NCBI GenBank assembly: GCA_009923445.1
Contig: RFTN01000003.1
Location: 65,260-129,259, forward strand
Reading direction: 5' to 3'
Length of the DNA stretch: 64,000 bases
Source: a bacterium
Lineage (GTDB): Bacteria > Patescibacteriota > Saccharimonadia > Saccharimonadales > SZUA-47
The translations under genes and the position numbers were made by a program. This document shows, piece after piece, positions 10,313-53,473 of this stretch. Position 1 is the stretch's first letter. The number at the start of each line of letters is the position of its first letter. The notes beneath the pieces were generated by a model that saw nothing but the letters and a program-made list of their open reading frames with translations, was not told where the DNA came from and did not search any database.

Positions 10313-10741
10313 TTAGGATATACCACTAGAACCAAACCCATTATTTGATCTTGTTGTCTCAGATAAACTATCCGCACAATCAAAGCTGAGAGGATGATAT
10401 GTTTCAAAAATAATTTGGGCTATCCTATCGCCAATATTAATTGTAAAAGCATTTTCTTTATCTGTATTATACAAAACGACCCCTATGGTTCCTCTGTAAC
10501 CGGGATCAATCACCCCGGCCAAAACATCCACCCCATTTTTAAAAGCTAAGCCCGATCTAGGAGCTATTCTTCCGTATATATTATTATCTGGCATTTCAAT
10601 TACTATACCAGTATTGACCAATGCTCTGCTTAATGGTGGTATAGTCATAGCATCTACAGAATATAAATCTGCACCAGCATCTGATAAATTTGCTCTAGTT
10701 GGAATTTTTGCATCCTTATGTACTTTCTTAACTTTAATCAT
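10313..10741 (-). CDS. dut: dUTP diphosphatase
   Basis: Motifs AGADLYS, PRSG, GVIDPGYRG, C-terminal GFGSSG; start moved to ATG 10741 with GAGGGA upstream. Confidence 0.9.
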   Translation of the reverse strand: MIKVKKVHKDAKIPTRANLSDAGADLYSVDAMTIPPLSRALVNTGIVIEMPDNNIYGRIAPRSGLAFKNGVDVLAGVIDPGYRGTIGVVLYNTDKENAFTINIGDRIAQIIFETYHPLSFDCADSLSETTRSNNGFGSSGIS

Positions 10742-10746
10742 ATTAA

Positions 10747-12396
10747 TTATCCCTCGCATGATGTACAGGTTAAAATATTTCTTACCAATTCTTGAGCAGG
10801 GTTGGATGATCTTTGATAATAAAAACTTTTAATACCATTTTCCCATCCATAGATCAAGAGATCACTAACGCTTTTTGCTGGACAATTTGGTGGAATCATT
10901 AGATTTAATGAAATTGCTTGATCAACATATTTTTGTCTTTGTATATTTTGAATCACAATTTCTTTTTGACTAATTTCACCAAAAGTTTTAAATACATCTT
11001 TTTCTTCTTGTGTCAAAAAATCTAAATGTTGTACAGACCCTCCTCTGACTAATATGCTTTTCCAAACATCCTCTTTGTCTTGGTCTTTATGTTTTAATAT
11101 TTGTTTAAGATATGGATTTTTATATGTAAAACTGCCCTTGGCCAATTTTTTCACAAAGTAGTTTGAATTTAAAGGTTCTATGGATGGACTGACTTGCCCT
11201 AAAATAAAAGAACTGCTCGTGGTGGGCGCCACAGCTAACGTAGTGACATTTCTGCGACCATAGCCCTTGAGTAATTCTGGTTCTCCAAATTTGTCGGCTA
11301 ATTCTTTAGTGGCTATATCGGCTTTTTCTCTAATAGTTTTCCATATTTCAATATTCCAGGATTTAGCCAGCATAGACTCGAAGCCTATATTCTTTGATTG
11401 TAGAAAAGAATGCCATCCTAACACACCCATGCCTAGTGCTCTTTGATTTTTAGCAAAATTGTGCGCGGTTTCCATAAATTTAATATTATGGGTTTTTTGG
11501 ATAAATTCTTCATTAACAGTATCCAAGAAATAAATCAGAGTTTGTATCGCATCAGTCTTACTAATCTCTTCCCAATGTAATAGATTCAAAGAAGATAAAA
11601 CACAAACAAAAGAATTATTCTCATCTGAAGATAAGGCTATTTCACTACAAAGATTACTACTATGGATGGTTAAATTTTTATCCTTATATACCTGTGGACT
11701 ATTATTATTAGTAGTATCCTTAAATACTATATATGGATATCCTGTTTCAAATCTTTTTTGTATAACTTTAGCCCAAATTTTTCTTTTATCTTTATTTCCC
11801 TCTATCATACTTTTCATCCATTCATCAGTAATGGTAACACCAATACTCATATTCTGGATACTATGTCCTTCAGATCTGATTTGCAAAAACTCCTCGATAT
11901 CAGGATGTTCTACGGGAAGATACGCTGCAAAAGATCCTCTACGAGCAGATCCTTGTGATACTACTTCTGCAACTTTATCAAACATTTCCATAAAATGCAC
12001 AGGACCACTAGATTCTCCGCCAACACTGATAGAAGATCCTCGTGGCCTTAAATCACCAAAATAACCACTGGTTCCACCACCAAGCTTACTCATCATTCCT
12101 ACTTCAGCTACTTTACTTAAAATGCTCTCCATAGTATCTGATAAATAAGAATTAAAACAAGATACTGGTAGTCCTCTATCGTTTCCAAAGTTTGTCCATA
12201 CTGGAGTAGCTAAAGAATAAAATCCTCTACTCATATAGTCTTCGAACTTATCTGCAAATCCAGCAATACCCAGAATTTTTTCAGATGTTTCGGCTATATG
12301 TCTTATTCTTTGTTCTGGAGTTTCTCCATGTTTTAAATATCCTCTTTCTAGAAAGATACGACTATGAGAATTTAGCCAATAGTACTTCTTATGCAT
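10747..12396 (-). CDS. nrdA: ribonucleotide reductase class I large subunit (short form, no ATP cone)
   Basis: 549 aa; active-site SSNLCSEIAL, C-terminal CTSCEG redox pair; adjacent to an NrdB gene. Confidence 0.9.
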   Translation of the reverse strand: MHKKYYWLNSHSRIFLERGYLKHGETPEQRIRHIAETSEKILGIAGFADKFEDYMSRGFYSLATPVWTNFGNDRGLPVSCFNSYLSDTMESILSKVAEVGMMSKLGGGTSGYFGDLRPRGSSISVGGESSGPVHFMEMFDKVAEVVSQGSARRGSFAAYLPVEHPDIEEFLQIRSEGHSIQNMSIGVTITDEWMKSMIEGNKDKRKIWAKVIQKRFETGYPYIVFKDTTNNNSPQVYKDKNLTIHSSNLCSEIALSSDENNSFVCVLSSLNLLHWEEISKTDAIQTLIYFLDTVNEEFIQKTHNIKFMETAHNFAKNQRALGMGVLGWHSFLQSKNIGFESMLAKSWNIEIWKTIREKADIATKELADKFGEPELLKGYGRRNVTTLAVAPTTSSSFILGQVSPSIEPLNSNYFVKKLAKGSFTYKNPYLKQILKHKDQDKEDVWKSILVRGGSVQHLDFLTQEEKDVFKTFGEISQKEIVIQNIQRQKYVDQAISLNLMIPPNCPAKSVSDLLIYGWENGIKSFYYQRSSNPAQELVRNILTCTSCEG

Positions 12397-12416
12397 TTAT
12401 TATATTCCATTCTAAT

Positions 12417-13391
12417 TTAATTAAATAGATCGTCTACGTCAAAACTTTGAGAAGACTTTGCATACTCTACAGGACGAGAGTGGAAAAAGTCTGACATATT
12501 ATTTCCTAAGACTTGTTCATCAAACCACGATGTTTTAGATATCATCTCCTGATCAACCTCAAAAATAGGATCATATCCAATTTGTTTTAGAGAATCATTC
12601 ATTCTGTTTTTAATAAATTCTTTGAGTAACTCAGAGTTCAATTTTTCGTGTTGGTGTCCATTTACTATCCATTCCACAATTTGACACTCGTATTTTACAG
12701 CATCTCTGGCTTCATGCTCTATTTTCTTTTGAAGTTCTTCATCAAATAATTCTGGATGTTCAGCTTTAATTGTATTAATAATTTTGATACCAATCATAGC
12801 ATGTAAATTTTCTTCTCTGGAAGTATATTCAACTTGCTTATTAGTATCTTTAAGAAGATTTTTGTATCTACCGAACCAACTGATAGTATAAAATTGAGAA
12901 AACAGTGCTATATTTTCAACAAATAATGTAAATAAAATTAATGAATATATAAACTGTTTTTTATTATCAGTATGAAATTTATGTAGGTGTTTTCTTAAAT
13001 AGTTGACTCTACCTTGAATCAAGTCTAATTTCAGGATTTGATCAAAACTATCTTCTATTCCTAGAACCTCTAATAGTCTCTCATAAGCATCACCATGAAT
13101 AACTTCAACATTGGCCATTACATAACCCATATCATTAAGTGACGGGTGTGGTAAATTATCTCCTAGTTTGGCCCAGAACTTCTTAACACTAATTTCTAAT
13201 TGTCCAATTGTTGATAATGCCCTAATGACAATCTGCTGTTCTTGTTCTGTTAAATTAACTTTAAAATCTTGTACATCACTACTAAAATTAAATTCTCTAT
13301 GAGTCCAAAATCCATTGTGCATAGCTTCGATAAAGTCTTGGGTCCATGAATATAAATCTGGCTTTCTTGTAATTTGTTCTTGAAAAATCAT
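12417..13391 (-). CDS. nrdB: ribonucleotide reductase class I small subunit
   Basis: 324 aa; di-iron ligand motifs EVIHGDAY and EENLHAM, ferritin-like layout, acidic C-terminus. Confidence 0.9.
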   Translation of the reverse strand: MIFQEQITRKPDLYSWTQDFIEAMHNGFWTHREFNFSSDVQDFKVNLTEQEQQIVIRALSTIGQLEISVKKFWAKLGDNLPHPSLNDMGYVMANVEVIHGDAYERLLEVLGIEDSFDQILKLDLIQGRVNYLRKHLHKFHTDNKKQFIYSLILFTLFVENIALFSQFYTISWFGRYKNLLKDTNKQVEYTSREENLHAMIGIKIINTIKAEHPELFDEELQKKIEHEARDAVKYECQIVEWIVNGHQHEKLNSELLKEFIKNRMNDSLKQIGYDPIFEVDQEMISKTSWFDEQVLGNNMSDFFHSRPVEYAKSSQSFDVDDLFN

Positions 13392-17856: not shown

Positions 17857-18159
17857 TTAATTATTAATTATCCAAGTATAAGTATTAGTATCTAATATTG
17901 CTTGTTCATTTGGCTTAGGAGGAATAAAAGCGTCTAAATTAGGATCATAATAAAACCCAATGCCCGCATAATTACCCCTATAAGGAACTCCACCATAAAG
18001 ATGTTGGTTATTTCTGGTGTTATAACTTGTTCTTTTGCAAACTTGTCCTCTAAAATCACCATAATATTTTTCCCAATCAATATCAAGTTCGCCCTCATCT
18101 CTGCCAACTATAACTTCTGTAACAAAGTTGTTCTCATCTAAAAATGCATAATGTGCCAT
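17857..18159 (-). CDS. hypothetical protein
   Basis: 100 aa ORF upstream of the fibre genes; no motif recognised. Confidence 0.45.
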   Translation of the reverse strand: MAHYAFLDENNFVTEVIVGRDEGELDIDWEKYYGDFRGQVCKRTSYNTRNNQHLYGGVPYRGNYAGIGFYYDPNLDAFIPPKPNEQAILDTNTYTWIINN

Positions 18160-18170
18160 AATTTTTCTCC

Positions 18171-19145
18171 TTAGCTAAATGTAATAGTATCTGTTCCTGC
18201 TGTAATATCTATAATAGTTTCATTTCCTGATGTGGATGCGGTGTATGTTAATCCAACCCCTATTGTATAATTTAAAGTTGATGAAAATCTGAATCCAACT
18301 CGCCCAGATCCGCCATTGGAAGGTACTAGTACATTTCCGTTATATCCTCCTCCTCCCCCGCCACCAGTATTGGTTGATCCTGCGGTTGATGATCTTGACG
18401 GGCTGTTGACAGCACCTGTGCCGCCTCCACCGGTTCCACCAGATCCGCTACTGCCAGATACGGAGGGTGCTCCTCCTCCTCCGCCACCACAAAAGGTATT
18501 ATTATTGGCCGGTGGATTGGCTGATGTATTTGGGATAGAAGAAGTTCTGCCGTTTCCGCCGCTGCCTGCGTTGTTGTTGCTGTTTGAGTTTCCGGCAGTA
18601 TTTGCTCCTCCTCCTCCGCTTGCAGCATTAAGGAATGATGATGATGTTAAAGAAGAGCCGCCATTATTTCCATACAAACCGGCTAATGCTTTGCCGCCAA
18701 GTCCAGTTCCAGCATGAGAAGCAGAGCCTCCTCCGCTTCCGCCATCTTTTCCAACCTTGAGTGCCGGTGTTCCTCCGGTGCCTCCGGAGCCTCCTCCAAT
18801 AGCATAATATATGTGAAACAAAGAAAAACCCCCAGAATTTGAAGGTGATCCAGTACTGTTTATTGCACCTCCAGCACCAACTGTTATATTGTATGGTGTA
18901 TCTAGAGATACACCTACCTCTAATTCAACAAAAGCTCCTGCTCCTCCTCCTCCTCCTCCTAATTCGACATTTCCGGAGTTAGTTCCTCCATATCCCCCCG
19001 GACCTCCTCCTCCCACCAATAAAACTTTTATAGTTTGCAAAGAATCAGACAACAAATCCCATGAATATCCATTCCAAGAATAAATTCTTCCATTCTGTCT
19101 TGATAATTGATTAGTTGTTGGACTGCTTGGAAAACTAAATGGCAT
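18171..19145 (-). CDS. glycine-rich fibre-like structural protein (paralog A)
   Basis: 324 aa; long GGGxGG/GGSGG tracts without G-X-Y periodicity; C-terminus IGVGLTYTAS...TAGTDTITFS shared with the next gene. Confidence 0.7.
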   Translation of the reverse strand: MPFSFPSSPTTNQLSRQNGRIYSWNGYSWDLLSDSLQTIKVLLVGGGGPGGYGGTNSGNVELGGGGGGAGAFVELEVGVSLDTPYNITVGAGGAINSTGSPSNSGGFSLFHIYYAIGGGSGGTGGTPALKVGKDGGSGGGSASHAGTGLGGKALAGLYGNNGGSSLTSSSFLNAASGGGGANTAGNSNSNNNAGSGGNGRTSSIPNTSANPPANNNTFCGGGGGGAPSVSGSSGSGGTGGGGTGAVNSPSRSSTAGSTNTGGGGGGGYNGNVLVPSNGGSGRVGFRFSSTLNYTIGVGLTYTASTSGNETIIDITAGTDTITFS

Positions 19146-19156
19146 AACTTATTTCC

Positions 19157-20014
19157 TTAACTAAATGATATGTTGTCTGTTCCGGCGGTAAATGTTAAAA
19201 CAGTATCAGAACCTGCAATTGCTGATGTATATGTTAATCCAACACCTATGGTTGTTCGCAAATATGATGGAAATCTTATAATAACAACTCCTGAACCACC
19301 CGATCCCGCTGTTATAAAACCAGTTGTACCACTGCCACCGCCACCACCGCCTCCTGTATTTGGTGAACCATTTGTCGCATTGGTGGTGGAACTTCCGCCA
19401 TCACCACCGCCGCCAGTACCACCAGTGCCGCCAGCAAATGTACTATTTCCACCGCCAGCCCCACCGCCAGCATATGTTGTCAGAGCCACGGGTATAGAAG
19501 AGCTTCTGCCAGATCCGCCGTTGCCACCAGCGGTTCCTGATGCCGCACCGCCAATAGAACCCGCTCCGCCACCGCCCCCTCCCCGCACGTTACCATTACC
19601 ATTTCCTCCTATATTTCCTTGTTGAGATGCAACGATATTTGATGATGAAACTGTTGAGGACAAAGCACCCCCGCCCGATCCTCCTCTAATAAAATTAGCA
19701 CTGCCATCTTGATAACCGCCACCTATGCAAATAATATTTGCAAATCTAGAGTTGCTTCCGAAGTTTCCGTTATTTGTACCTCCGGAACCTATGGTTATAT
19801 TGTAATTAGTGTTTAAAGTTACTCCAAAAGTTTGTTCCAGCATTCCACCCGCACCTCCGCCTCCTCTACCGTTGGAGCCGGCAGATCCATTTAAAGGACC
19901 GCCCCCACCAGCAACAACCAAAACCTGTACGCTATTAGTTTGTGTGGTGTTAAGAGATCCATAAGGAAGAGAAGACACCAGAGTTGTTCCGAATCCGAAA
20001 ATGCCGTTGTTCAC
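19157..20014 (-). CDS. glycine-rich fibre-like structural protein (paralog B)
   Basis: 285 aa; same Gly-rich architecture and C-terminus IGVGLTYTSA...TAGTDNISFS; GTG start in a GTGA overlap with upstream stop. Confidence 0.7.
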   Translation of the reverse strand: MNNGIFGFGTTLVSSLPYGSLNTTQTNSVQVLVVAGGGGPLNGSAGSNGRGGGGAGGMLEQTFGVTLNTNYNITIGSGGTNNGNFGSNSRFANIICIGGGYQDGSANFIRGGSGGGALSSTVSSSNIVASQQGNIGGNGNGNVRGGGGGGAGSIGGAASGTAGGNGGSGRSSSIPVALTTYAGGGAGGGNSTFAGGTGGTGGGGDGGSSTTNATNGSPNTGGGGGGGSGTTGFITAGSGGSGVVIIRFPSYLRTTIGVGLTYTSAIAGSDTVLTFTAGTDNISFS

Positions 20015-20394
20015 AGATCCGCTCCTAATGCTGTAACGTGAGTCGTTTGACTAACACTAGTGGTGGCTCTTACGCTCCATGATGCGCTTGGTAATATAAG
20101 ATTATTATAACTTGTGCTGACTCTAGTTTGTTGAACAGTGGATGACCCTGTTGCTGCGGCTATTGTAACTTCATCGAATAACCAGTAAGTTGAACCATCA
20201 TATAAAAATATTCTAACAATAGCTGCTGATGATGTGGCTGCACACTTTATCACAATTTCTGCTATTCTCGTACCCGTACTAGCTCCAGTAATAACTGTGC
20301 CAACGTTAGTTGGGGCTGTATACGAGCTATCTGCTGTAGCTATGGATACTGCACCTATTCTTGGTGTTGCTGCGAACGAAGGACTTGTAGCCAT
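20011..20394 (-). CDS. hypothetical structural protein
   Basis: 127 aa Ala/Ser/Thr-rich ORF inside the fibre operon, GGAGAAA ribosome-binding site upstream. Confidence 0.5.
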   Translation of the reverse strand: MATSPSFAATPRIGAVSIATADSSYTAPTNVGTVITGASTGTRIAEIVIKCAATSSAAIVRIFLYDGSTYWLFDEVTIAAATGSSTVQQTRVSTSYNNLILPSASWSVRATTSVSQTTHVTALGADL

Positions 20395-20407
20395 AAATTA
20401 TTTTCTC

Positions 20408-20854
20408 CTATCTAAAATTACTCCATAAATAAAGATTAATTGCTGCTTGAGCATTTGCTATTCCTCCCATTGGGGGACCAACTTCAACATATTGTGAACC
20501 AGTCCATTGATATAGTCTGCTGGTATCAGTTGCTAAATAATAAACTGATGTTGAGCCTGTTGCTGGAAAATTACTAGTAGTTGAATAAGATGCTATACTA
20601 TTTAAACCGCTAACACCAATAGTAGCTGTTGATCCATTAGAGCCTAAACTAATATTAATATTAGAACCACCTATTAATCCTGATGGTATTACTGAAGAGT
20701 ATGAAAGACTATTCCATGCTGAAGATCCATTTCCAATTTTAAAGAGTCCAGTATCACTTTCGTATCCTGGTTCTCCACTAGCTAATGTTGGATTACTACT
20801 ACTCCATTGGGAAGCTGTTCCCTTGCGTATAGTAATTAAATCATTAACTGGCAT
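20408..20854 (-). CDS. tail-fibre-like protein with HylP/Mtd-type N-terminal motif
   Basis: N-terminus IRKGTASQWSSSNPTLASGEPGYESDTGLFKIGNGSSAWNSL matches the R.G....W...NP.L..GE......KIGDG...W..L fibre N-domain. Confidence 0.6.
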   Translation of the reverse strand: MPVNDLITIRKGTASQWSSSNPTLASGEPGYESDTGLFKIGNGSSAWNSLSYSSVIPSGLIGGSNINISLGSNGSTATIGVSGLNSIASYSTTSNFPATGSTSVYYLATDTSRLYQWTGSQYVEVGPPMGGIANAQAAINLYLWSNFR

Positions 20855-20866
20855 AGCATCATCCTA

Positions 20867-22195
20867 TCAGGGGGTTCCACCATCAATAACACAATAATTT
20901 AGTGTTGTTGGACTATTAGCACTAGTACCACTAATAGTAGTAAGACCATTGATAGTTGTCAAAGAACCACCCAAAGAAACTGAACTAGATCCAATAGTAA
21001 CTGAACTATTAGCTAATTGATTATTATCTACGCCACCACTCTTAATACTAACTGCTCCAGAAGTTACATTAAAATCTCCACTATCAAAAGAAGCTATTCC
21101 TTTGGATGATGTTGACGCATCACTAATTAAACCAGATGTTACACCAGTAATTCTACCATAAGAATCTGATGTAACAGATTGTATAAATGATGAAGACGAT
21201 GAACCAGTACTATCAGATCTACTTATAGTAGCTAGATCTATAGAATCGCTATTAATTATTATTCTAGATGAACTAGCCGTACCAATATCTATTGTATTAC
21301 CATTTTTAGTTAAACCAGCTCCTGCTGTTATTTGACCAGCACCACTAAATTGTGTAAATACTAAGCCTGTTGTATCTAATGATATTGGATTATTAGTTGT
21401 TAACACCCAACCACTATCTGCATTGGCAGAGCCTTCTTCAACAAATGTAAACATACCAGCTGTAACTTCATTAGCAGAATCAGAATCACTAGAACGACTC
21501 CAATTACCAACGGCCACATCGTATATGCCATTTTGTGCATATGAGTTTTGATCTTTAACTAAAACTCTATCTCCAGCTACAACACTAACACCATCGATAG
21601 TTTGAACACCAGATAATGTAATATTTCCTGTTGTTGCCACCCTAACGCTTTGTTTAACGTCTAGTCCACTACGAATAGCATCAACATATGCTTTATTAGC
21701 AGCATCGCTATCCGCCGTAGGGGTAGCTAGTGAGGTTATTTTTTGATTATTGAAAGATACTGAGCTTGTGGGTGCGGCCATTTGATCTAGTCTATTTGTT
21801 CGCACCTGAGTATCAAAACCGGCTATATCACCAGCATTAGTAACAATGCCAGTATTAGTAATAGTATAAGTTCCATTACTATGAGATAAACTAATACCAG
21901 AACCAGCTGATAAAGGACTAGAAATATTTAGAGTATTATTTGCGTCATCATAAGTTTTAACAATACCATTACCAGCTATGATAAGATCGTTTACTCTATC
22001 ATCAATAATTTCATTTAATTCTGATGGTAGGGTTGTTGCCCAATCTAAACTACTCCATAGTGTTGATCCATCGCCAATTTTAAACTTTTTAAGAGTAGTA
22101 TCATATCCTATTTCACCCATTGATAGTGGGTCTGTGGATAATGCCCATTGAGTTGATGAGCCTCTTCGTAGTTGTACTTTTGTTTGAACTGGCAT
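20867..22195 (-). CDS. tail fibre protein
   Basis: 442 aa; N-terminus LRRGSSTQWALSTDPLSMGEIGYDTTLKKFKIGDGSTLWSSL (same motif), long Ser/Thr/Gly-rich shaft. Confidence 0.7.
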   Translation of the reverse strand: MPVQTKVQLRRGSSTQWALSTDPLSMGEIGYDTTLKKFKIGDGSTLWSSLDWATTLPSELNEIIDDRVNDLIIAGNGIVKTYDDANNTLNISSPLSAGSGISLSHSNGTYTITNTGIVTNAGDIAGFDTQVRTNRLDQMAAPTSSVSFNNQKITSLATPTADSDAANKAYVDAIRSGLDVKQSVRVATTGNITLSGVQTIDGVSVVAGDRVLVKDQNSYAQNGIYDVAVGNWSRSSDSDSANEVTAGMFTFVEEGSANADSGWVLTTNNPISLDTTGLVFTQFSGAGQITAGAGLTKNGNTIDIGTASSSRIIINSDSIDLATISRSDSTGSSSSSFIQSVTSDSYGRITGVTSGLISDASTSSKGIASFDSGDFNVTSGAVSIKSGGVDNNQLANSSVTIGSSSVSLGGSLTTINGLTTISGTSANSPTTLNYCVIDGGTP

Positions 22196-36519: not shown

Positions 36520-36581
36520 TATGGTGTCCTTAGTGGTTGTTGACACCACTTAATACACTATAAAAGATTTTTATAAAAGAA

Positions 36582-40697: not shown

Positions 40698-43682
40698 CTA
40701 ATTAGTGGTTGGTGCTAAAGTGGTTGTTGGGGCTACCGTTGTTGTAGGTCTTATTGTTGTGGTTGGAACTACCGTTGTTGTAGGTGTAATTGTTGTTGGA
40801 GCTACCGTTGTTATAGGAGCTATTGTTGTTGGGGCTACCGTTGTTGTAGTTGGTGGACAATTAATACTATTACACATTACATTAGCATAAAACTGTTCAT
40901 TAGGACCATCACAAATTGGTCTAGGTATATTATCAGCACAATAATAATCATTAGCACCATTACGGAGACAACATGCTCCTGGTGATTGCGTGGTTGTTGT
41001 TGATGTAGTGGTTGTTGATGTTGTTGATGTTGTTGATGTAGTGGTTGTTGTTCTGTTAAAACCTGTCTCTCCGCAATTTGGTATGGCTGGACTTGAAGTT
41101 GTACTGGTAGGAGACAATCTTGTTGGGCATTTAAGAACTAGAGTATCCTCATATGCAAAATCAAGAAAAACTTGTATAGTTATAACTCCTCTGGTTGGAT
41201 GCGTAAACTGCAAGTTAACAGGAACACCCAGTTGATTTTGCCATTCTTCTATTGTGCTTTGTGGCATTGGAGAATTTGACGATTTAATGATTCTAAAGTA
41301 TGAATTATCACTATAATCAATAGTGAAATTTCTCCACACATTATAATTTTGTTCTGGACTTCTAGCAGGATTATCTATAATAAAACTATTATCTCCGACT
41401 AATGAAGATATATTTAATTCATCAAAACAATAATTATCTCTTATGGGTATATTTGACACATTACAATCACAATTATCAGTTTCTGATGTCGGATCTGGAT
41501 ATACACAAACATCTCCAAAAGGAGGAGAATAATATTCTAAAGCAGTTAAGGAATAATCACATCCTGGCAAATTGGTGCGTTTGTAAACTATATTAAACGA
41601 ACCTAGAGATTGGGTGCTGCATTTCTGCCAACAAGCACAATTTATCGGGGTAGATGTTGTTGGAACAACAGTTGTAGATGTTGTTGTGCTAGTGGTTGTT
41701 GTAGTATTAGGTCCACAATTAATATCATCACAAATAGCATTAAGATAAAAAGTAGCATTATAATTATTAATACAAATTAATTGAGGTATATTGTTAGCAC
41801 AATAATAATTATTTTGATTATTTACACAGCATGCTCCAAACGGAGGCGGTGTAGTTGTGGTCGTTGCACAAAAATTAATATCTGCACAAGACTGTTGAGG
41901 ATAAAAAGTTTTCTTAAATGGTCCAGTACCACCGCCTGTACAAAGAGGCTGTCTAATATTATCATAACAAAGAGCGGGAACTCCCTCTCCATCGCCGTTA
42001 CAACACGCTCCAAAACATCTACTACTTGGTAATGCCTCGTTACACTCTTGTTCAGAAATGTATTCGCCACCTGTTTCAATATAAGATGGTAATTGATAAC
42101 AATAGGCCATAACCTCTATTTGATCACCACAATTAATAGACCATCTCTTAGGAACATTAGTTGTTGAGGTTGTGCTTGTAGTCGTGGTGGTTGTGGTCGT
42201 TGTGGTCGTTGTGGTCGTTGTGCTAGTGGTTGTGGTCGTTGTGGGAATAGTTGTTGTAGAAGTCGTACCGCCACCGCACATATTCATACTACACATTTTA
42301 GTAGCAAAAAATACAGAAAATAGACTTGCTGGCAATGGAGCACTACACTGTTGTTTAGTAAGATTATTTACACAATCCATGTATGTCATACTACCATCTA
42401 TTGGATTAACAACAAAATAACAACATGCTCCTGGTACTGATGGTGAAATTGTAGTTGTAGTTGTAGTTGTAGTTGTAGATGTTGCGGGAGGCTGAGTGGT
42501 AGTTGACGTTGCAGCTGGTGTGGTGGTTGTTGTACGACTATCATAAGTAAGACTATTTGTAATAACCTCATTTGTACTTGTTTGATTTGATCCACCGATA
42601 TTATATATTATTCTAACTTTAAAAATAACAGTACCAGAAAAATATTGATTATTATTTAATGGAAATATTGGGAAAGCATATACCGTATTTGGTAAACGTG
42701 CTAAATCTGATGTCATATTACCATATATAGTTTTATAGTATGGTGATTGTTCGGATGTCATCCAAATACCAGAAATATTATAAGAAACATAAACTCTAAT
42801 ATATCCTATATTTGTAGAATATGACGATATTGGTAAACAAGCATTATTATATCTTAATTGTATTGATGCAATGGGTTCTCCTGGGATACTAGGCTTATCA
42901 TCGAACCATCCTGCATTAGCAGTAATAATTGAACACTTATCATCACTGAATGGTGGAATAGTGGTTGTAGGTCCGCTAGTAGTGGTAACTCCGCTGGTTG
43001 TGGTAACTCCGCTGGTGGTGGTAACTCCGCTGGTTGTGGTAACTCCGCTGGTTGTGGTAACTCCGCTGGTGGTGGTAGGTCCGCTAGTAGTTGTAACTCC
43101 GCTGGTTGTGGTTATATTAGCCGTAGTTGTGGGAGCGAGAGTGGTGGAAGAACAAAATTGATAATTATATACCCCTGGAAAATCTATCCATGGACTAATA
43201 GGACCATTAATATTAAATAGATAAAATTCAACACTAATAGATCTAATTCTAAATATTAAACTATTATTATTTAATGGTAATTCTATATATACGGTATATA
43301 TTCCGCCGCCGGTGGTGTCGGCTTTAACAAACCTTCTATCAAAAACAGAAAAATTAATAATATTAATAGCTTCTATTTCAAAAGCTTTAATATTAGTATT
43401 AATGTTTGGATGAGCAAATTTTAGTACTATATATTTTACATTTTGTTGCGGACTAGATAAATTGTCGTAACATCCAATAGAAATAATTTTTGGAGGAGGT
43501 AATTCTGTTGTTGGTGTTTCGGTGGTTGTGACCCCTCTGGTAGTTGTAACTCCGCTGGTTGTGGTAACTCCGCTGGTGGTGGTAACTCCGCTGGTTGTGG
43601 TAACTCCGCTGGTTGTGGTAACTCCGCTGGTTGTGGTAACTCCGCCCAGGATGTAACATCTGTACCATCTCCTAAAGACCAA
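40698..43682 (-). CDS. giant Thr/Cys-rich modular fibre protein, distal part (probably the 3' portion of a single roughly 1,880-codon gene)
   Basis: 994 aa from a weak TTG start. Alternates TSG[VP]TT linkers, beta-sandwich-like modules and four G-A-C-C cysteine modules. Its frame is -1 relative to the upstream ORF. Confidence 0.7.
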   Translation of the reverse strand: MVFRRWYRCYILGGVTTTSGVTTTSGVTTTSGVTTTSGVTTTSGVTTTRGVTTTETPTTELPPPKIISIGCYDNLSSPQQNVKYIVLKFAHPNINTNIKAFEIEAINIINFSVFDRRFVKADTTGGGIYTVYIELPLNNNSLIFRIRSISVEFYLFNINGPISPWIDFPGVYNYQFCSSTTLAPTTTANITTTSGVTTTSGPTTTSGVTTTSGVTTTSGVTTTSGVTTTSGVTTTSGPTTTIPPFSDDKCSIITANAGWFDDKPSIPGEPIASIQLRYNNACLPISSYSTNIGYIRVYVSYNISGIWMTSEQSPYYKTIYGNMTSDLARLPNTVYAFPIFPLNNNQYFSGTVIFKVRIIYNIGGSNQTSTNEVITNSLTYDSRTTTTTPAATSTTTQPPATSTTTTTTTTTISPSVPGACCYFVVNPIDGSMTYMDCVNNLTKQQCSAPLPASLFSVFFATKMCSMNMCGGGTTSTTTIPTTTTTTSTTTTTTTTTTTTTTTSTTSTTNVPKRWSINCGDQIEVMAYCYQLPSYIETGGEYISEQECNEALPSSRCFGACCNGDGEGVPALCYDNIRQPLCTGGGTGPFKKTFYPQQSCADINFCATTTTTPPPFGACCVNNQNNYYCANNIPQLICINNYNATFYLNAICDDINCGPNTTTTTSTTTSTTVVPTTSTPINCACWQKCSTQSLGSFNIVYKRTNLPGCDYSLTALEYYSPPFGDVCVYPDPTSETDNCDCNVSNIPIRDNYCFDELNISSLVGDNSFIIDNPARSPEQNYNVWRNFTIDYSDNSYFRIIKSSNSPMPQSTIEEWQNQLGVPVNLQFTHPTRGVITIQVFLDFAYEDTLVLKCPTRLSPTSTTSSPAIPNCGETGFNRTTTTTSTTSTTSTTTTSTTTTQSPGACCLRNGANDYYCADNIPRPICDGPNEQFYANVMCNSINCPPTTTTVAPTTIAPITTVAPTTITPTTTVVPTTTIRPTTTVAPTTTLAPTTN
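40701..40855 (-). repeat. approx. 24-nt coding repeat (TTVAPTTx C-terminal tail)
   Basis: Encodes TTVAPTTIAPITTVAPTTITPTTTVVPTTTIRPTTTVAPTTTLAPTTN at the protein C-terminus. Confidence 0.8.
42158..42268 (-). repeat. poly-Thr/Ser coding tract
   Basis: gtcgtggtggttgtggtcgttgtggtc... encodes TTTTTSTTTTTTTTTTTTTTTSTTSTT. Confidence 0.9.
42958..43130 (-). repeat. 18-nt tandem repeat array 1 (ggtaactccgctggttgt; TSGVTT linker)
   Basis: About 9 near-identical in-frame units read directly from the sequence. Confidence 0.95.
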
Positions 43683-46336
43683 AACCTAACTCTCCAGTAA
43701 TAACCATTTTGAATATTACTCAACACAAAAACACTTGTACGATTACTTTCTATAGTATATATAGCTTCATCTATCCAAGAAATACCATTATCCATACTTT
43801 TCTGTAGTTGAATGCCTACATTAAAATTATTAATATTATTAATTATTAAATTTTTATTAACTCTATTTATTAAAGGAGGAGTAATATTTCCTATATTATA
43901 AATATAATTAGTGCTCCAAGCACTTGGTATAACACCATTAATATCATATGCTCGTGCTCTCCATAATGACGGAGTATTAACTGCTGTTGTAGTATAATTA
44001 CCACTATTAGCTAGTATATTAATAAAATCTACATCATTCCAAGATAAGCCGTTGTCAAAACTTCGTTGTACTTGACAATTAACTGTAAAATCGTTTATAT
44101 TAAACAAATATGTGTTAGATAGTGCTTGACCAGGAAAATCTGGATTAGCCCTTAGTATTGGCGGAACAATATTAGTAGAAACATTAGGATCAGTATAAGA
44201 TATATATGGAGTAATTATACTATTACTATATATCGGATTATTTTGATTATCATAATACATCATGGTTATTCTGAATCTAGCACCACCAGAATATCCACTT
44301 ATTGATGGAAATACGGCTTGTGTATATACTTTAAAGTTTAAATATGATGTAGTTAATGTAGTATTCAATATCCAATTATTGGTATTAACAATATTGTATT
44401 CAATATAATAATATATTGATCCTATATTTGAACTAGGAATACTTGGTACAGAACAATTATCATAAGACAAATCAATCTGCGCTAGCTGTATCGATGAAAT
44501 ATTATTGGACGCAAGCCATGAAGGAGTCGCTGAAGATATTAAACAACTTCCTATTGCTCTTGTCGTTGTGGTGGTAACATTAGCTGTTGTTGCTCCGCTG
44601 GTGGTGGTAACTCCGCTGGTTGTGGTAACTCCGCTGGTTGTGGTAACTCCGCTGGTTGTGGTAGGTCCGCTGGTTGTGGTAACTCCGCTGGTTGTGGTAG
44701 TTACTCCTGCGGTGGTTGTTGGAGCGGGACTAAATTGCAAAGAGATGTTATCATTAATTAAAGGTGTTTTGTTAATAGCTAAAATTCTATTAACTCTATC
44801 TATACCAGTAATAGTTGTATTTGATGGTATCCCCGATCCAAAAACTATATCTCGAACTTTTACATTGTTTAAATTATTGTTATTATCTTGAGTAATAATA
44901 ATTATATTGATACTTGGACTAATTTGTCCTATGATAGTATTTAAAGATGTAGATAAAAATAATGTTTCTAATTGTTGTGTTTCAGTTGTATTATTACTAA
45001 TTTTAATATAATTATCATTAGAATTATTAATATAAGTAATAACAGTATTTTCTGGTATACCAGAACCAGATATTGTTGAACCCAATTTAATTTTATTAAT
45101 ATCATTAGGTTCAACAAAAATAATATTAGTATTAATGCTATATGTGCCTAAAAAAGAAACCAATGGGCCAGACGTTGTTGTTGGACCAGTACTTGTTCTT
45201 GTTGTTTCACAAGTACAAGAATCACAATAGAATGTGGTTCCAGATGAACAATTTATAACAGGATAAAAAATATTTCCTGTACAATTATATGTAGGACATG
45301 GTGGGACCGTAGTAGTTGTGCTGGTGGTGGGGCCGCTGGTGGTGGTGGGGCCGCTGGTGGTGGGGCCGCTAGTTGTGGTAACGTTACTAGTAGTAGTAGT
45401 AGTAGTAGTAGGTATATTAGTTGTGGTTGTTGTAATAATTATACTAGAATTACAATCAGCATTATTACATGTTTTGAACGGTTTAAAAATTGTGCTAATT
45501 GTTTGTGGTCTTGGAATATTACATTCTGACTCTAACATTTCTTGACAATCAAAATATTGTTGTCCACCATTACTAGTATTCAAGTAGAAACAGCAAGAAC
45601 CCATTACTGACTGACTATTAATAATAGCTGAACCAGCAGTAATATTATTAATTGATGATAATACCGTAAATTCTGCTGAATTAATAACTTTATTTACAAC
45701 ATATTGGCCCACAGCAGTATTACCAGTAATAGGATAAAAATTAATAGTTTGACCAGTTATTAAATTATGATTATTTAATTGACAAGTTATAACAGATGCT
45801 TGTTGGCTATAATTTATCTGATAATCAGTGGGGGCTTTGTAAATAACATATGGAGTAAAATCATTTTTATGTTGAAATAAATAAGTATTAAATTTAATTA
45901 AAGAAGATAAAGAATTAATATTAGACAATGGATTATAGGAAATAAATCCTGAACCAAAAGAATTTATTGCATATATTTTTGTAATTTTATTATCAAAAAT
46001 AGAGTCTTTAAGAACTAAATTTTCACCATAATAAGTAATAATTTCTAAATTTTTTCTAGCAACTATGAACGAAGGAGGTTCTACTTGTTGAAACCCAGAA
46101 GGTATCGATAGACTATACGGAGAAGAATCAAAGCTTTGAATTATTACAGATTGGTATTTTTGCAGAGATGATAGTGAATTAATATTAGATTCTGGAGAAT
46201 ATGATACGAATCCGCTGCCAGCATTATTGCTGCCGTAAACTCTTACTAAGCGACTATTCTCTGACCCGTTAAGATCCTGTATATTTACCTGATCATATAG
46301 CCATTGAACAAAAGATATTGGCCGATTTATTTGCAT
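43436..46336 (-). CDS. giant Thr/Cys-rich modular fibre protein, proximal part
   Basis: 966 aa; duplicated N-terminal modules, one G-S-C-C cysteine module, TSGVTT linkers, and two FN3-like modules (YWRVRF..G.G..VTSW) at the end before the frame change. Confidence 0.7.
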   Translation of the reverse strand: MQINRPISFVQWLYDQVNIQDLNGSENSRLVRVYGSNNAGSGFVSYSPESNINSLSSLQKYQSVIIQSFDSSPYSLSIPSGFQQVEPPSFIVARKNLEIITYYGENLVLKDSIFDNKITKIYAINSFGSGFISYNPLSNINSLSSLIKFNTYLFQHKNDFTPYVIYKAPTDYQINYSQQASVITCQLNNHNLITGQTINFYPITGNTAVGQYVVNKVINSAEFTVLSSINNITAGSAIINSQSVMGSCCFYLNTSNGGQQYFDCQEMLESECNIPRPQTISTIFKPFKTCNNADCNSSIIITTTTTNIPTTTTTTTSNVTTTSGPTTSGPTTTSGPTTSTTTTVPPCPTYNCTGNIFYPVINCSSGTTFYCDSCTCETTRTSTGPTTTSGPLVSFLGTYSINTNIIFVEPNDINKIKLGSTISGSGIPENTVITYINNSNDNYIKISNNTTETQQLETLFLSTSLNTIIGQISPSINIIIITQDNNNNLNNVKVRDIVFGSGIPSNTTITGIDRVNRILAINKTPLINDNISLQFSPAPTTTAGVTTTTSGVTTTSGPTTTSGVTTTSGVTTTSGVTTTSGATTANVTTTTTRAIGSCLISSATPSWLASNNISSIQLAQIDLSYDNCSVPSIPSSNIGSIYYYIEYNIVNTNNWILNTTLTTSYLNFKVYTQAVFPSISGYSGGARFRITMMYYDNQNNPIYSNSIITPYISYTDPNVSTNIVPPILRANPDFPGQALSNTYLFNINDFTVNCQVQRSFDNGLSWNDVDFINILANSGNYTTTAVNTPSLWRARAYDINGVIPSAWSTNYIYNIGNITPPLINRVNKNLIINNINNFNVGIQLQKSMDNGISWIDEAIYTIESNRTSVFVLSNIQNGYYWRVRFWSLGDGTDVTSWAELPQPAELPQPAELPQPAELPPPAELPQPAELQLPEGSQPPKHQQQNYLLQKLFLLDVTTIYLVRNKM
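43520..43646 (-). repeat. 18-nt tandem repeat array 2 (same unit), in the overlap of the two giant ORFs
   Basis: About 7 units. Read as TSGVTT in the 40698..43682 frame and as AELPQP in the 43436..46336 frame. Confidence 0.95.
44563..44722 (-). repeat. 18-nt tandem repeat array 3 (same unit)
   Basis: About 7 units ggtaactccgctggttgt with minor variants. Confidence 0.95.
45305..45440 (-). repeat. degenerate Thr/Ser/Gly/Pro linker repeat array 4
   Basis: tggtggggccgctggtgg units then (agt)n; encodes TTSGPTTSGPTTTSGPTTSTTTT. Confidence 0.85.
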
Positions 46337-47188: not shown

Positions 47189-47216
47189 TGTGCAGGTCCG
47201 GGAGGTTAATACATAT

Positions 47217-47981
47217 ATGCAGAACACTATAGGGATTGCTATTGTTTGTACAAATGCATACTTTATTCTTGGTATAAGATTTATCAAAAAGTTCATGTAT
47301 CATTATAAAGGCAGTGCTGATATTATTTTTTATATTTTCACAGACACCGACCCGTCAGAATATCTTGTAAATATTCCATATAAATATATTCATAATGAAC
47401 ACAAAAGCTGGGTTGATGGTACTAATTCTAAATTTGAAAATATAATTAAATTATATCAAGAAAATTGTGATTATTTATTCTATTTTGATGCTGATACAAA
47501 TATTACTAGGCCTTTTGATGAAACATGGTTTATTGGTGATCTTGTTGCTGGCGAGCACTACAACAATAGGAGTTACGCTATTGACATTAAAAACAAACCT
47601 TTCGAAAGAAATCCAAAGTCAAAAGCTTGTGTGCCACTTGGTTCACCAAGAACGCAAACTTATTGTTATGGAGCATTTTTTGGTGGAAAAAAAGATAATG
47701 TTATTAACATGTGTAAAACTTTAAAAGAAAATCAAATCGCTGATAAATTAATTAATTTTGAACCATGCTGGAATGATGAAAGCTATCTAAATAATTATTT
47801 TCATTATCATGATGTGACTATTGTGCCTTCTGATAAATTTGCGTTTGGGGTTAGCGATAAAGGTGGAATAGGAGACACAAGAGATATGAAACTACAAACA
47901 GAAAAATATAAACAAATATTGCTAACACAACCAGACAAACCATTCGAGTTACATAATAAAGAAATTCTATTCATAGACTAG
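47217..47981 (+). CDS. GT6-family glycosyltransferase (ABO / alpha-1,3-GalT-like)
   Basis: CDYLFYFDADTNI, FERNPKSKACVP, YCYGAFFGG and EPCWNDESYLNNYF parallel bovine a3GalT VDFLFCMDVDQVF, YERRKESAAYIP, YYHAAIFGG and EAQWHDESHLNKYF. Start moved to ATG 47217. Confidence 0.75.
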   Translation: MQNTIGIAIVCTNAYFILGIRFIKKFMYHYKGSADIIFYIFTDTDPSEYLVNIPYKYIHNEHKSWVDGTNSKFENIIKLYQENCDYLFYFDADTNITRPFDETWFIGDLVAGEHYNNRSYAIDIKNKPFERNPKSKACVPLGSPRTQTYCYGAFFGGKKDNVINMCKTLKENQIADKLINFEPCWNDESYLNNYFHYHDVTIVPSDKFAFGVSDKGGIGDTRDMKLQTEKYKQILLTQPDKPFELHNKEILFID

Positions 47982-47982
47982 T

Positions 47983-49305
47983 ATGTTTAATACATTTTTT
48001 GAAACTATAGATAGTACTGATCAATTAAGTATTAAATATACTAATCTTTATTATCTAGATAATCAATTTTGGTATTTTACTACTGACCCAAAAGAAAAAC
48101 CTCCATATGTTAATAAGTGGACCAATACCTATGGATGGAGACCCAACATCAAAATATTTGATAGTCAAAGTAATATACAAACTTTTTTAACATACAATTA
48201 TCCAAACATTGAGAGTATTTCACTTGGCCTATTAAGCGATAATCTTTGGTACGGAAATGTCGGACACGCCTTATTTGATGGTCTATACCCAGTATATTTA
48301 GCATCTGTAAAATTTGGATACGACGATTCTCCATTTGTATATCTAACGAATGATTGGACTAATAACAAAGTAACTGCTGATGAAGCAATACGACTATTTT
48401 CTAAAACTAAACAGATACTTAACTATCCTAAAATAGATAGAAATATTATTTTTAATACTTTAATATGTGGTACCGGAAACACTGGTAATAGAGTTATATC
48501 CAAACAATATACATTGTATGGTAAAAAATATGATGCTATCTATAAGTTTAAAAAACGAATAATGCAAACTTGTGGGGCTGAACATGATAGATTAATCAAT
48601 AGTCCTATTCAAGGTATTATAGTCCATAATAAAAGATATAGTGTAGAAGAACAAAAAATTATAGATAATGTTATAGAATATTTTAATACTCAACAAAATA
48701 TTATACAAATAAAATATATTGACTGGGCTAAATTTAATTGCTTTAGCGATCAAATGAAATTTTTACAAAATATAGATCTCTATATTACAGGTCCTGGTAC
48801 TGGTATGATGTATATGCCTTTTCTTAAAAATGGTGCAATTAATATAAATCTAGGATATATAGAGCATACCCAAACCAATACTGCGAGACCTAATATAAAA
48901 ATATTAAATAGTCATCATGATGATCATATATTTCCTGGATGGATGGAACAATCAGTATGCGCTGGAGCCGATTACGTTAGCACACTATACTATGATAGAT
49001 TTAAATATAATAATATAGACTATAAATATTTAATTAGCCTTATTGAAGATAGTATAAATTTAATTCAATCTAAAACTAAAAGAAATACTAATCATAACAT
49101 AGATGCGCTAGTATTTATTGAATATTGCAATAATGTGGATAATGCAGACGAACTTTGCGCATACTTGACCGACATGGGGTTTTTTATAGAGTTATTTGTC
49201 AATGAACACCCATATGCCATACCAAAACATATGGTGGATATAAATCTATTAAGAAAAATAAAAGATAAATTTGGAATGGATCGCAAATATGAAATTAAAA
49301 CCTAG
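47983..49305 (+). CDS. putative glycosyltransferase (GT61/DUF563-like)
   Basis: 440 aa; GHALFDGLYPVY near the N-domain and IIVHNKRYSVEEQ...DQMKFLQNIDLYITGPGTGMMYMPF resemble GT61 layout (H..D, R...N..E, s..eq...., G.G). Assigned by recall only. Confidence 0.4.
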   Translation: MFNTFFETIDSTDQLSIKYTNLYYLDNQFWYFTTDPKEKPPYVNKWTNTYGWRPNIKIFDSQSNIQTFLTYNYPNIESISLGLLSDNLWYGNVGHALFDGLYPVYLASVKFGYDDSPFVYLTNDWTNNKVTADEAIRLFSKTKQILNYPKIDRNIIFNTLICGTGNTGNRVISKQYTLYGKKYDAIYKFKKRIMQTCGAEHDRLINSPIQGIIVHNKRYSVEEQKIIDNVIEYFNTQQNIIQIKYIDWAKFNCFSDQMKFLQNIDLYITGPGTGMMYMPFLKNGAININLGYIEHTQTNTARPNIKILNSHHDDHIFPGWMEQSVCAGADYVSTLYYDRFKYNNIDYKYLISLIEDSINLIQSKTKRNTNHNIDALVFIEYCNNVDNADELCAYLTDMGFFIELFVNEHPYAIPKHMVDINLLRKIKDKFGMDRKYEIKT

Positions 49306-49316
49306 CAAAGATATAC

Positions 49317-50234
49317 TTAGATCACCGGATATAGTATACCATATCCCTCATATTCTTTTTTGCCTGCGTATTTTGGATCAGATAGATGCTTTGACAGCTT
49401 TTTAAAAATATCTATATAGTCATCAGACGTAGCAAGTTTTGTTTTATTATTAATATTATGAGACAGCAAAAGACTAGCACAACCAACAGCGAATGGATTA
49501 CTCATACTAGTTCCGCTCATAATAGCATAACCATTATTTGGTACAGTACTTACTATCTCATGCCCTGGTGCTAAAAAGTCTAGTTCTTCACCAGAACAAG
49601 AAAAAGATGTCCTATTAAAATTTTTATCAATGGCTCCAATACATATTACTTCTGAATATTTAGCTGGATACATAATAGGAGATCTTTCTCCAGCATTACC
49701 AGCAGCACAAAATGTTACTATTCCTTTACTAGCAGCATATTTTATAGCTTTTTCTATACCAATAAATGGAGAAGGAGAACCCAAAGACATAGTAATAAAG
49801 TCCGCTCGGCGATCCGCTGCATAAATCACAGCCTTTGCTATGGCTTCTGGATCACCCTGTCCTTCATCATTAAGAGCCTTGAGAGGCATTATTTTAGTTT
49901 CTGGAGCAACACCCACCATACCTTTATTGTTGTTGCAGGCGGCGATTGTTCCACTGACATGAGTACCATGACCATTGTGGTCGGTTGGGTCTTGACCTAA
50001 CTCTATGAAATTTTTACCTTCTATTATATTATCTTTTAAATCATTATGATTGAGATCACATCCAGTGTCAATTACGGCAACAACAACGCCTCTGCCCGTC
50101 GCATAATTCCATAAATTTTGTATGTCAAATTTAGTAATCTCCCATCCTAAATACTGCCCACTATCACTAGATAAACCGTGCAAATCTTCTCTTTCATAAG
50201 GCAATAAACCCCAACTATTTTTTCTTCTGCGCAT
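49317..50234 (-). CDS. subtilisin-like (S8) serine protease
   Basis: Catalytic triad motifs VAVIDTGCD (Asp), HGTHVSGTIAA (His), GTSMSNPFAVG (Ser). Confidence 0.85.
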   Translation of the reverse strand: MRRRKNSWGLLPYEREDLHGLSSDSGQYLGWEITKFDIQNLWNYATGRGVVVAVIDTGCDLNHNDLKDNIIEGKNFIELGQDPTDHNGHGTHVSGTIAACNNNKGMVGVAPETKIMPLKALNDEGQGDPEAIAKAVIYAADRRADFITMSLGSPSPFIGIEKAIKYAASKGIVTFCAAGNAGERSPIMYPAKYSEVICIGAIDKNFNRTSFSCSGEELDFLAPGHEIVSTVPNNGYAIMSGTSMSNPFAVGCASLLLSHNINNKTKLATSDDYIDIFKKLSKHLSDPKYAGKKEYEGYGILYPVI

Positions 50235-50979
50235 TTTGCGTCTCCTTAATAGTATTTTCTATCCATTCAATATGATAGCTAATTCTGGTGTGTCCACTTT
50301 CATCTCCATATGAAGCGTCACCTTTTTTATCCCTAGCAAATAAACAAGAATTTATTCCTGCTAATTTATTATTAATAAATAAACCACCGCCGCTATCTCC
50401 TCCTGCTATTAAAAATTCTAATTCTGTTTTATCAGATTCCAAAGAAGGAGAACATATTAACATATTTTTTTCAATTTTATCTATTATATTAGAGCCTGCC
50501 CTCCTTTTTCCATCGTCTTTGTGAAACCCTGTATTAAAGTCTCCCGTTAAACCAAAACCAGACATATAGCATATTCGTCCCACTTCATCATTAGTATTAT
50601 ATAATTTTGGATAAATATCTAAATCTAAACTATTATCTAGTATTAATATTGCAATATCATTACAATCAAAATCATTATTCTTGAAATTAGGATGTTGTAT
50701 AACTTTATTTACAGAATATACTTTATTATTATAATCTATAAAACATCCTTTGGATTTATCTACAATATGTGCTGCTGTTAATATATAATTTGGACTGATA
50801 GCTACTGCTGACCCAAAAAATAAATCATCATTTTGATATTGTCCTATTATTTTTAGAACATATTTAAATTTTGATCCAAATTCAATATGTTTAGTATCAT
50901 CAGTAGATGGAGATATAGTACCACTATAACTAGTAGCACTAAATAATATAGAATATATTAATACCAGTATAAAAACCAT
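50215..50979 (-). CDS. trypsin-like (S1) serine protease with signal peptide
   Basis: LTAAHIV (His), NDIAILIL (Asp), GDSGGGLF (Ser); N-terminal MVFILVLIYSILFSATSYSG signal-like segment. Confidence 0.8.
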   Translation of the reverse strand: MVFILVLIYSILFSATSYSGTISPSTDDTKHIEFGSKFKYVLKIIGQYQNDDLFFGSAVAISPNYILTAAHIVDKSKGCFIDYNNKVYSVNKVIQHPNFKNNDFDCNDIAILILDNSLDLDIYPKLYNTNDEVGRICYMSGFGLTGDFNTGFHKDDGKRRAGSNIIDKIEKNMLICSPSLESDKTELEFLIAGGDSGGGLFINNKLAGINSCLFARDKKGDASYGDESGHTRISYHIEWIENTIKETQNAQKKK

Positions 50980-53260: not shown

Positions 53261-53473
53261 TTACCTATAAAATCTATTTTGAGGAACTCCATTACGAGGA
53301 ACTACCCAGCTAGGCTTAACAGGAAACTCATTGATTTTTTTTAGAAACTTCTTCTTGTGTTGCATAACAATGCTGGGCTTAAAATAAGTTCCGTCATCAT
53401 TTCTACCAGCATCCATATCACAAAAACAGCAAGTAAATTGCTTGATAGCATAAATTAGTACTGATTCTGCCAA
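53261..53473 (-). CDS. hypothetical protein
   Basis: 70 aa ORF overlapping the rIIB stop by 19 nt. Confidence 0.4.
   Translation of the reverse strand: MAESVLIYAIKQFTCCFCDMDAGRNDDGTYFKPSIVMQHKKKFLKKINEFPVKPSWVVPRNGVPQNRFYR

Follow-up and report, generated by a model that had tools for sequence, protein, structure and literature searches.

Two overlapping reading frames of a T4-like phage as probable halves of one giant modular gene split by an out-of-frame deletion

Two reading frames and the junction between them

The stretch of DNA analysed here, called the window throughout, comprises 64,000 nucleotides (nt) of contig RFTN01000003.1 (positions 65,260 to 129,259). It comes from a T4-like phage, is rich in AT (~32% GC) and has its genes closely packed. 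On its minus strand two long open reading frames (ORFs), ORF1 and ORF2, overlap in different frames (Table 1), and the break in frame between them is the subject of this work. The proximal part of the locus encodes an N-terminal domain and a Cys-rich module together with Thr linkers, a beta module and a tandem pair of FN3-like modules ending in ...TDVTSW. The distal part consists of a GVTTTS linker, beta modules, four Cys-rich modules of the type GACC..., and a Thr/Pro-rich C-terminus.

The initial annotation of this DNA had noticed that ORF2 lies in the -1 frame relative to ORF1 and that the change occurs where an FN3-like module meets a Thr-rich linker. Translation confirmed both the offset and its position. 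The last folded module of ORF1 closes as ...YWRVRFWSLGDGTDVTSW, after which the frame reads AELPQPAELPQP... up to the stop at 43436. The tryptophan codon at 43646-43648 ends the tandem FN3-like module and the frame breaks directly after it, the junction on the minus strand being tcc tgg gcg gag tta, with tgg for this tryptophan. At this point begins an 18-nt tandem repeat, array B, which is read as AELPQP (six times) in the frame of ORF1 and as GVTTTS in the frame of ORF2. Two further arrays, A and C, are both read as GVTTTS, so that the earlier statement that the other copies of the repeat use this frame holds; three-frame translation showed the AELPQP frame to be open in arrays A and C as well, by chance. 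As the repeat unit is 18 nt long, the copy number of an array cannot alter the reading frame.

The start of ORF2 had been described as a weak TTG without a ribosome-binding site. The TTG stands, but a Shine-Dalgarno (SD)-like GGAGAG lies upstream of it at a spacing which resembles the ribosome-binding sites of real genes in this phage. The same bases double as codons of the conserved YWRVRF motif, and the GGAGAG is probably fortuitous. A motif scan between ORF1 and ORF2 yielded no promoter or terminator motif exceeding shuffle expectation.

Table 1. Features of the ORF1/ORF2 locus and states of a second variable locus downstream of rIIB
Feature	Position	Strand	Basis and remarks
ORF1	43436..46336	-	966 amino acids (aa), ATG start; stop at 43436
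ORF2	40698..43682	-	994 aa from TTG; -1 (= +2) frame relative to ORF1
TAG closing the ORF2 frame on the 5' side	43686..43688	-	limits the site of any frame change
Proximal part of the proposed gene, 897 codons	43646..46336	-	translation; 100% identical to scaffold_296; homologues of aa 2-245 and aa 706-897
Distal part of the proposed gene, ~982 codons	40698..43643	-	-1 frame; from 42478 downward 100% identical to contigs L002/L001
Out-of-frame ORF1 tail (AELPQP x6 ... NKM, stop)	43436..43645	-	translation
Mechanical TTG start of ORF2	43680..43682	-	GGAGAG at 43690-43695, 7 nt upstream
Proposed deletion junction	43644..43645	-	scaffold_296 13011-13086 (TATTATCC...CCACCAG, 76 nt) missing between these bases
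Array A, 18-nt repeat	44593..44699	-	inside ORF1, read GVTTTS
Array B, 18-nt tandem repeat GGAGTTACCACAACCAGC, 6.1 copies (109 nt)	43537..43645	-	TRF; three-frame translation
Array C, 18-nt repeat	42972..43112	-	inside ORF2, read GVTTTS
Tandem FN3-like beta-sandwich pair, last folded unit before the break	43646..44239	-	alignment, AlphaFold2, Foldseek
rIIB-downstream locus, full length			ENA scaffold_296
rIIB-downstream locus, minus 421 nt			window
rIIB-downstream locus, minus ~339 nt			RGZS01000089.1; right breakpoint equals that of the window within 2 nt
rIIB-downstream locus, minus 283 nt			RHBH01000084.1

An uninterrupted version in a sister assembly

Sister assemblies were located via exact-protein look-ups of the genes neighbouring ORF1 and ORF2, which led to scaffold_174 and scaffold_296 of ENA ERZ28577356, to Logan contigs of SRR8075950, and to contigs in three NCBI metagenome-assembled genomes. 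These contigs are 100% identical to the window wherever they overlap with it, except for single bases at 36559 and 19333. Comparison with related contigs, which the initial annotation had suggested, found the junction intact in scaffold_296 (L006/L011). This scaffold is 100% identical to the window over 12.6 kilobases (kb), and in a global alignment it equals the window from 56233 to 43646 save two segments absent from the window, one of 421 nt between 53455 and 53454 and one of 76/94 nt between 43645 and 43644. Neither the 421-nt nor the 76-nt segment was found anywhere else in the window.

After ...acatcctgg scaffold_296 continues with gtattatccgtaccactaacaactacaacatcaactactagaacaccgaccacaactaacagaccaaccaccaccagc and then repeats ggagttaccacaaccagc until the contig ends. 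In the frame of ORF1 this is read as ...TDVTSW VLSVPLTTTTSTTRTPTTTNRPTTTS GVTTTSGVTTTSGVTTTSGVTT, the linker continuing GVTTTSGVTTTS..., and from its ATG the frame runs without a stop through 945 codons up to the end of the contig, reading ...GDGTDVTSWVLSVPLTTTTSTTRTPTTTNRPTTTSGVTTTSGVTTTSGVTTTSGVTT. The junction DNA is ACATCCTGGGCGGAGTTACC in the deleted and ACATCCTGGGTATTATCCGT in the intact version, and the respective peptides are WAELPQP and WVLSVPLTTTTSTTR. When one 18-nt unit is counted as missing together with the 76 nt (94-nt register), positions 13105-13154 of scaffold_296 match 43644..43595 of the window perfectly over 50 nt. The periodicity of array B allows missing lengths of 76 nt and of 76 nt with any number of 18-nt units added; all these candidate lengths are of the form 3n+1 and so match the observed frame offset exactly. 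Microhomology at the junction amounts to 1 nt, a single G.

Splicing scaffold_296 10319-13154 to the minus strand of the window from 43594 to 40698 yields a single uninterrupted ORF of 1,910 aa, and the 76-nt register of the same splice gives 1,904 aa. The single-gene model of the initial annotation is borne out by this spliced ORF of 1,904-1,910 codons and by the way in which scaffold_296 reads through into GVTTTS in the frame of ORF1. The two ORFs also resemble each other in their modules. A beta module of ~125 aa (z = 11.2) and a Cys-rich module of ~55 aa (z = 14.0) are common to both, as determined with linker-free modules and 1000 shuffles; this shuffle test was used because composition correction leaves the BLASTP E-values between ORF1 and ORF2 non-significant.

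Another line of evidence comes from distant relatives. HMMER, run exhaustively against 1.84 billion representative proteins, retrieved 22 of them in two groups. One group matches the N-terminal domain (aa 2-245) and has among its members a protein of 1,378 aa in which Cys-rich modules and Thr linkers occur; the second matches the tandem module pair (aa 706-897). Wherever a homologous module pair has further sequence after it, in seven of seven cases, the terminal ...SVSxW is followed within ~10 residues by an in-frame Thr/Pro-rich linker, and none of these homologues ends at the tandem module. This arrangement of module and linker agrees with scaffold_296 and not with the window.

From these results ORF1 and ORF2 are very probably the halves of one gene of ~1,900 codons, split by an out-of-frame deletion of 76-94 nt: an intact collinear version with 100% identical flanks exists, and the length of the indel is not a multiple of three, as would be seen in a disrupted gene. 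In such an event the first part of the linker after the tandem FN3-like pair would have been lost, namely 76 unique nt that encode VLSVPLTTTTSTTRTPTTTNRPTTTS and, in the simplest case, a single 18-nt repeat unit with them (94 nt in all). A loss of 3n+1 would put all downstream sequence into the -1 frame, the upstream frame would then read the repeat in the wrong phase (AELPQP...) until it meets a stop by chance, and no start of its own would remain for the distal half, with no recoding of the message. The tail of ORF1 from 43436 to 43645 is a by-product of the deletion and no coding region in its own right.

Several points weigh against a single disrupted gene. The comparison rests on assembled contigs, which do not separate an allele from an artefact, and only one other assembly, scaffold_296, covers the junction, ending inside array B. 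The continuity from array B to the distal half therefore rests on the window's own assembly and on the frame neutrality of the 18-nt units. Searches of phage records and of metagenome, genome and protein databases did not yield a close relative in which the full-length gene is intact: megablast and tblastn found nothing matching the gene among 50,697 phage records, pattern and protein scans for the left flank of the junction or for the module gave no match in IMG/VR, JGI metagenomes and GTDB genomes, and apart from scaffold_296 no contig spanning the junction was found. An exact look-up of the ORF1 protein returned no record. A 448-aa fusion spanning the junction had no match among 5.8 billion proteins in a word-indexed search, which also missed the identical partial ENA product, so that this database seems not to include proteins truncated by the end of a contig. 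ORF2 had zero matches to the 23 retrieved homologues with phmmer and blastp, and among them none was shown with both ORF1-type and ORF2-type modules. No literature was found for the sample and assembly accessions.

Other explanations and the origin of the deletion

The frame break could in principle also be due to a single-nucleotide indel or homopolymer error, with one G missing at 43642-43645, as had been considered in the initial annotation. The arithmetic of this proposal is right, as one added G restores ...TSWAGVTTTS or ...TSWGGVTTTS. The lesion found is nevertheless not one base: the difference from scaffold_296 consists of 76/94 nt which are unique, in frame and linker-like, the G run at the break is only 3 long, and the rest of the window, compared over more than 50 kb with four other assemblies, is free of indels, which makes a single-base error highly improbable. 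One might conversely regard the window as correct and the ENA scaffold as wrong, the 76 nt (junction TCCTGGGTATTATCC) being a chimeric insertion from elsewhere. The extra segment does occur in one assembly only, which ends 68 nt later inside the repeat, but it is unique, without a copy elsewhere in the window, and it is in frame, stop-free and a T/P-rich lead-in as found before the other arrays and in the homologues. An arbitrary insertion would restore the frame in about 1 of 3 cases and would read as a linker too far less often, and a chimeric scaffold thus merits very little credence. Hardly any more can be said for two genes by design, a proximal fibre protein with a Pro-rich AELPQP tail and a separately initiated distal protein (M/L-VFRRWYRCYILGGVTTTS...). 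The SD-like GGAGAG 7 nt upstream of the TTG at 43682, spaced as in real phage genes, would suit such an arrangement, yet it encodes part of the YWRVRF motif, an intact allele exists, and no homologue ends at the module. The AELPQP tail, earlier taken as a possible means to make a truncated fibre, is the off-frame reading of a repeat which is read as GVTTTS in both other arrays.

Programmed -1 ribosomal frameshifting or transcriptional slippage, joining the two ORFs or giving a short and a long product, would fit with the overlap of ORF1 and ORF2 in the -1 configuration, and phages do use -1 frameshifting in tail genes, as in lambda G/GT. A scan of 43436-43690 found no slippery heptamer X XXY YYZ in any frame, in agreement with what had been reported before, and between the TAG at 43686-43688 and the stop at 43436 there is neither such a heptamer nor an A/T run of at least 6. 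Homopolymers of at least 6 are absent from the whole ORF overlap, the longest being GGGG (43535) and AAAAA (43491), both off the break, which itself has only GGG. No stable downstream stem-loop or pseudoknot was found either: the RNA downstream of the break has a minimum free energy of -13.5 kcal/mol compared with a shuffle mean of -21.6 (z = +2.9) and is thus less stable than its shuffles, 200 of 200 of which fold at least as well. The frame change is moreover not conserved, being absent from scaffold_296, the uninterrupted version in the same phage, and from the homologues. With no heptamer, no RNA structure and an intact sister version, programmed frameshifting was rejected, as were transcriptional slippage and homopolymer phase variation with only GGG at the break; recoding of either kind retains a next to negligible probability. 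Variation of repeat number as a phase switch, which had also been raised, was discarded because an 18-nt unit keeps the frame and the sequence lost is unique. While lambda gpG/gpGT is alike in its -1 overlap in a virion-type gene, the locus described here lacks the slippery heptamer, the stimulatory structure and the conservation, has an intact allele, and is not a member of this class.

The frame break is therefore an ordinary out-of-frame deletion, either biological or introduced by assembly. Similar cases are split tail-fibre genes and large repeat genes in phage and metagenome assemblies, which share with it two adjacent long ORFs in different frames for one protein, a break beside a tandem repeat and an intact sister version. 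These are usually caused by a homopolymer indel or a change in repeat copies, whereas here 76-94 unique nt are lost with 1 nt of microhomology.

That a deletion allele is truly present in the phage population and was followed by the assembler has about an even chance. A local misassembly or faulty gap closure in this repeat-rich gene, at which every other assembly breaks, is a serious possibility as well, if somewhat short of even, and the probability beyond these two was assigned to the rival explanations above. On the side of an artefact, five other contigs stop inside the gene, at 41908, 42478, 44670, 46038 and 46063, which indicates that it is hard to assemble; the part from 42478 to 43521 is crossed by the window only; and the lesion abuts a tandem repeat in a window which otherwise is essentially without differences from the other assemblies. 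On the side of an allele is a locus just downstream of rIIB (53454-53455; L016 3872-4496), which occurs in four states in four otherwise identical assemblies (Table 1), with a microhomology of 0-2 nt for each deletion. This slightly favours real heterogeneity. De Bruijn-graph assemblers are unable to invent junction k-mers, so that the states downstream of rIIB are most simply read-supported variants, and the junction in the giant gene may likewise be one. An array B shortened to 109 nt would also be the sole version that short-read k-mers could span.

The 421-nt deletion of the window at this second locus removes the start of a 143-aa gene. The segment also contains a tRNA-like element (scaffold_296 2794-2876) with a clear GGTTCGATTCC T-arm, which scored 26.6 bits with the Rfam tRNA model at a gathering score of 29 and was not called by ARAGORN.

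The encoded protein and its surroundings

The protein encoded by the two halves is a modular, Thr-linker-rich phage surface or fibre-like protein. It is nearly an orphan, and FN3-like pairs, Cys-rich modules and GVTTTS linkers are combined in it with an N-terminal domain. The term FN3-like, used already in the initial annotation, is upheld by structure prediction. An AlphaFold2 model of aa 700-897, calculated with a 10-sequence alignment, gave two six-strand beta-sandwich blocks with a predicted local distance difference test score (pLDDT) of 76.6, and the best Foldseek matches in the PDB were tandem FN3 pairs (E = 5e-5 to 1e-3, probability ~1.0), among them IL-31R D1D2, neogenin FN5-6 and the integrin beta4 pair, with T5 tail-tip chains also listed. 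That the template modelling (TM) scores reach only ~0.3 is due to a different interdomain angle. The pair is thus predicted to have an FN3-like fold. Each of its modules contains an Asp-box-like S-x-D-N-G-x-S-W motif, and Pfam yielded only a sub-threshold match to Reelin_subrepeat-B for the pair. The Cys-rich modules, five in number with ~45-55 aa each and the pattern G-[AS]-C-C ... C ... C ... C ... C, are distributed over 40698-46336, four of them in the ORF2 half and the fifth in the ORF1 half. No family of Pfam or PHROG matches these modules, and similar GACC modules are present in the 1,378-aa distant homologue (P0020).

The label fibre is a guess from this architecture, as there are no Pfam, PHROG or PDB sequence matches and the neighbourhood is not a tail module. 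Strings of FN3/Ig-like modules are known from phage fibres and decoration proteins such as T5 pb4, and from T4 Hoc. These are alike in their tandem FN3-like beta-sandwich modules, and T5 tail-tip folds are among the matches; the protein described here differs by having no Pfam or PHROG match, long Thr-rich linkers, Cys-rich modules of ~50 aa, and glycosyltransferase genes as neighbours. Mucin-like and cellulosome-type proteins also have folded modules spaced by Thr/Pro-rich linkers from short tandem DNA repeats, but here the family is a phage-encoded orphan and glycosylation of the linkers is deduced solely from the neighbouring genes. Two of these, GT6-like and weakly GT61-like, are located divergently just upstream of the giant gene at 47190-49305 on the plus strand, and a 70%-identical relative (P0023, Logan ERR4869718; L019 728-2432) carries genes for GT10-like and Fringe-like enzymes at the corresponding place. 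This arrangement suggests that the Thr-rich GVTTTS linkers are O-glycosylated, and the protein may be a glycosylated virion appendage.

Besides glycosyltransferases, the neighbours of the giant gene are proteases, a clamp-loader-like AAA protein and rIIA/rIIB. Genes for ribonucleotide reductase, DNA ligase and Mtd_N-type fibre proteins are also found in the window, and no close cultured relative of its phage was found. Adjacent genes for a subtilisin-like (Peptidase_S8) and a trypsin-like protease lie between the clamp-loader-like gene and the glycosyltransferases (49317-50979, minus strand), a pairing which is unusual for a T4-like phage. Within 18000-22195 on the minus strand, two proteins with Mtd_N domains are encoded at 20867-22195 and 20408-20854. 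They adjoin an unusually GC-rich stretch (0.456 at 18-20 kb compared with ~0.32 elsewhere) with Gly-rich GGTGGTGGC repeats, and position 19333, one of the two sole single-nucleotide polymorphisms between assemblies, falls into this region. Contig RHBH01000297.1 (L008), from a metagenome-assembled genome, matches the window from 48687 to 45740, ~199 codons into ORF1, and then continues at 2949-3658 with an unrelated convergent collagen-like gene (G-x-x repeat); the contig is chimeric or else represents a mosaic fibre variant.

For annotation these results mean that ORF1 and ORF2 belong together as one disrupted gene for which no recoding mechanism is needed, and that the intact protein of ~1,910 aa can be recovered from the window and ENA scaffold_296. 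The same phage population shows unusual deletion heterogeneity at the second locus downstream of rIIB. A further-reaching idea, rather unlikely on present evidence, is that the break belongs to a set of real deletion alleles, recurrent and poor in microhomology, which segregate in an otherwise clonal T4-like phage population, the remaining members of the set being the at least four alleles downstream of rIIB. If so, phages with the full-length form would coexist with a subset whose fibre is truncated, having either just the proximal half or a distal half translated anew from the fortuitous SD-TTG, and adsorption or host range would be altered.

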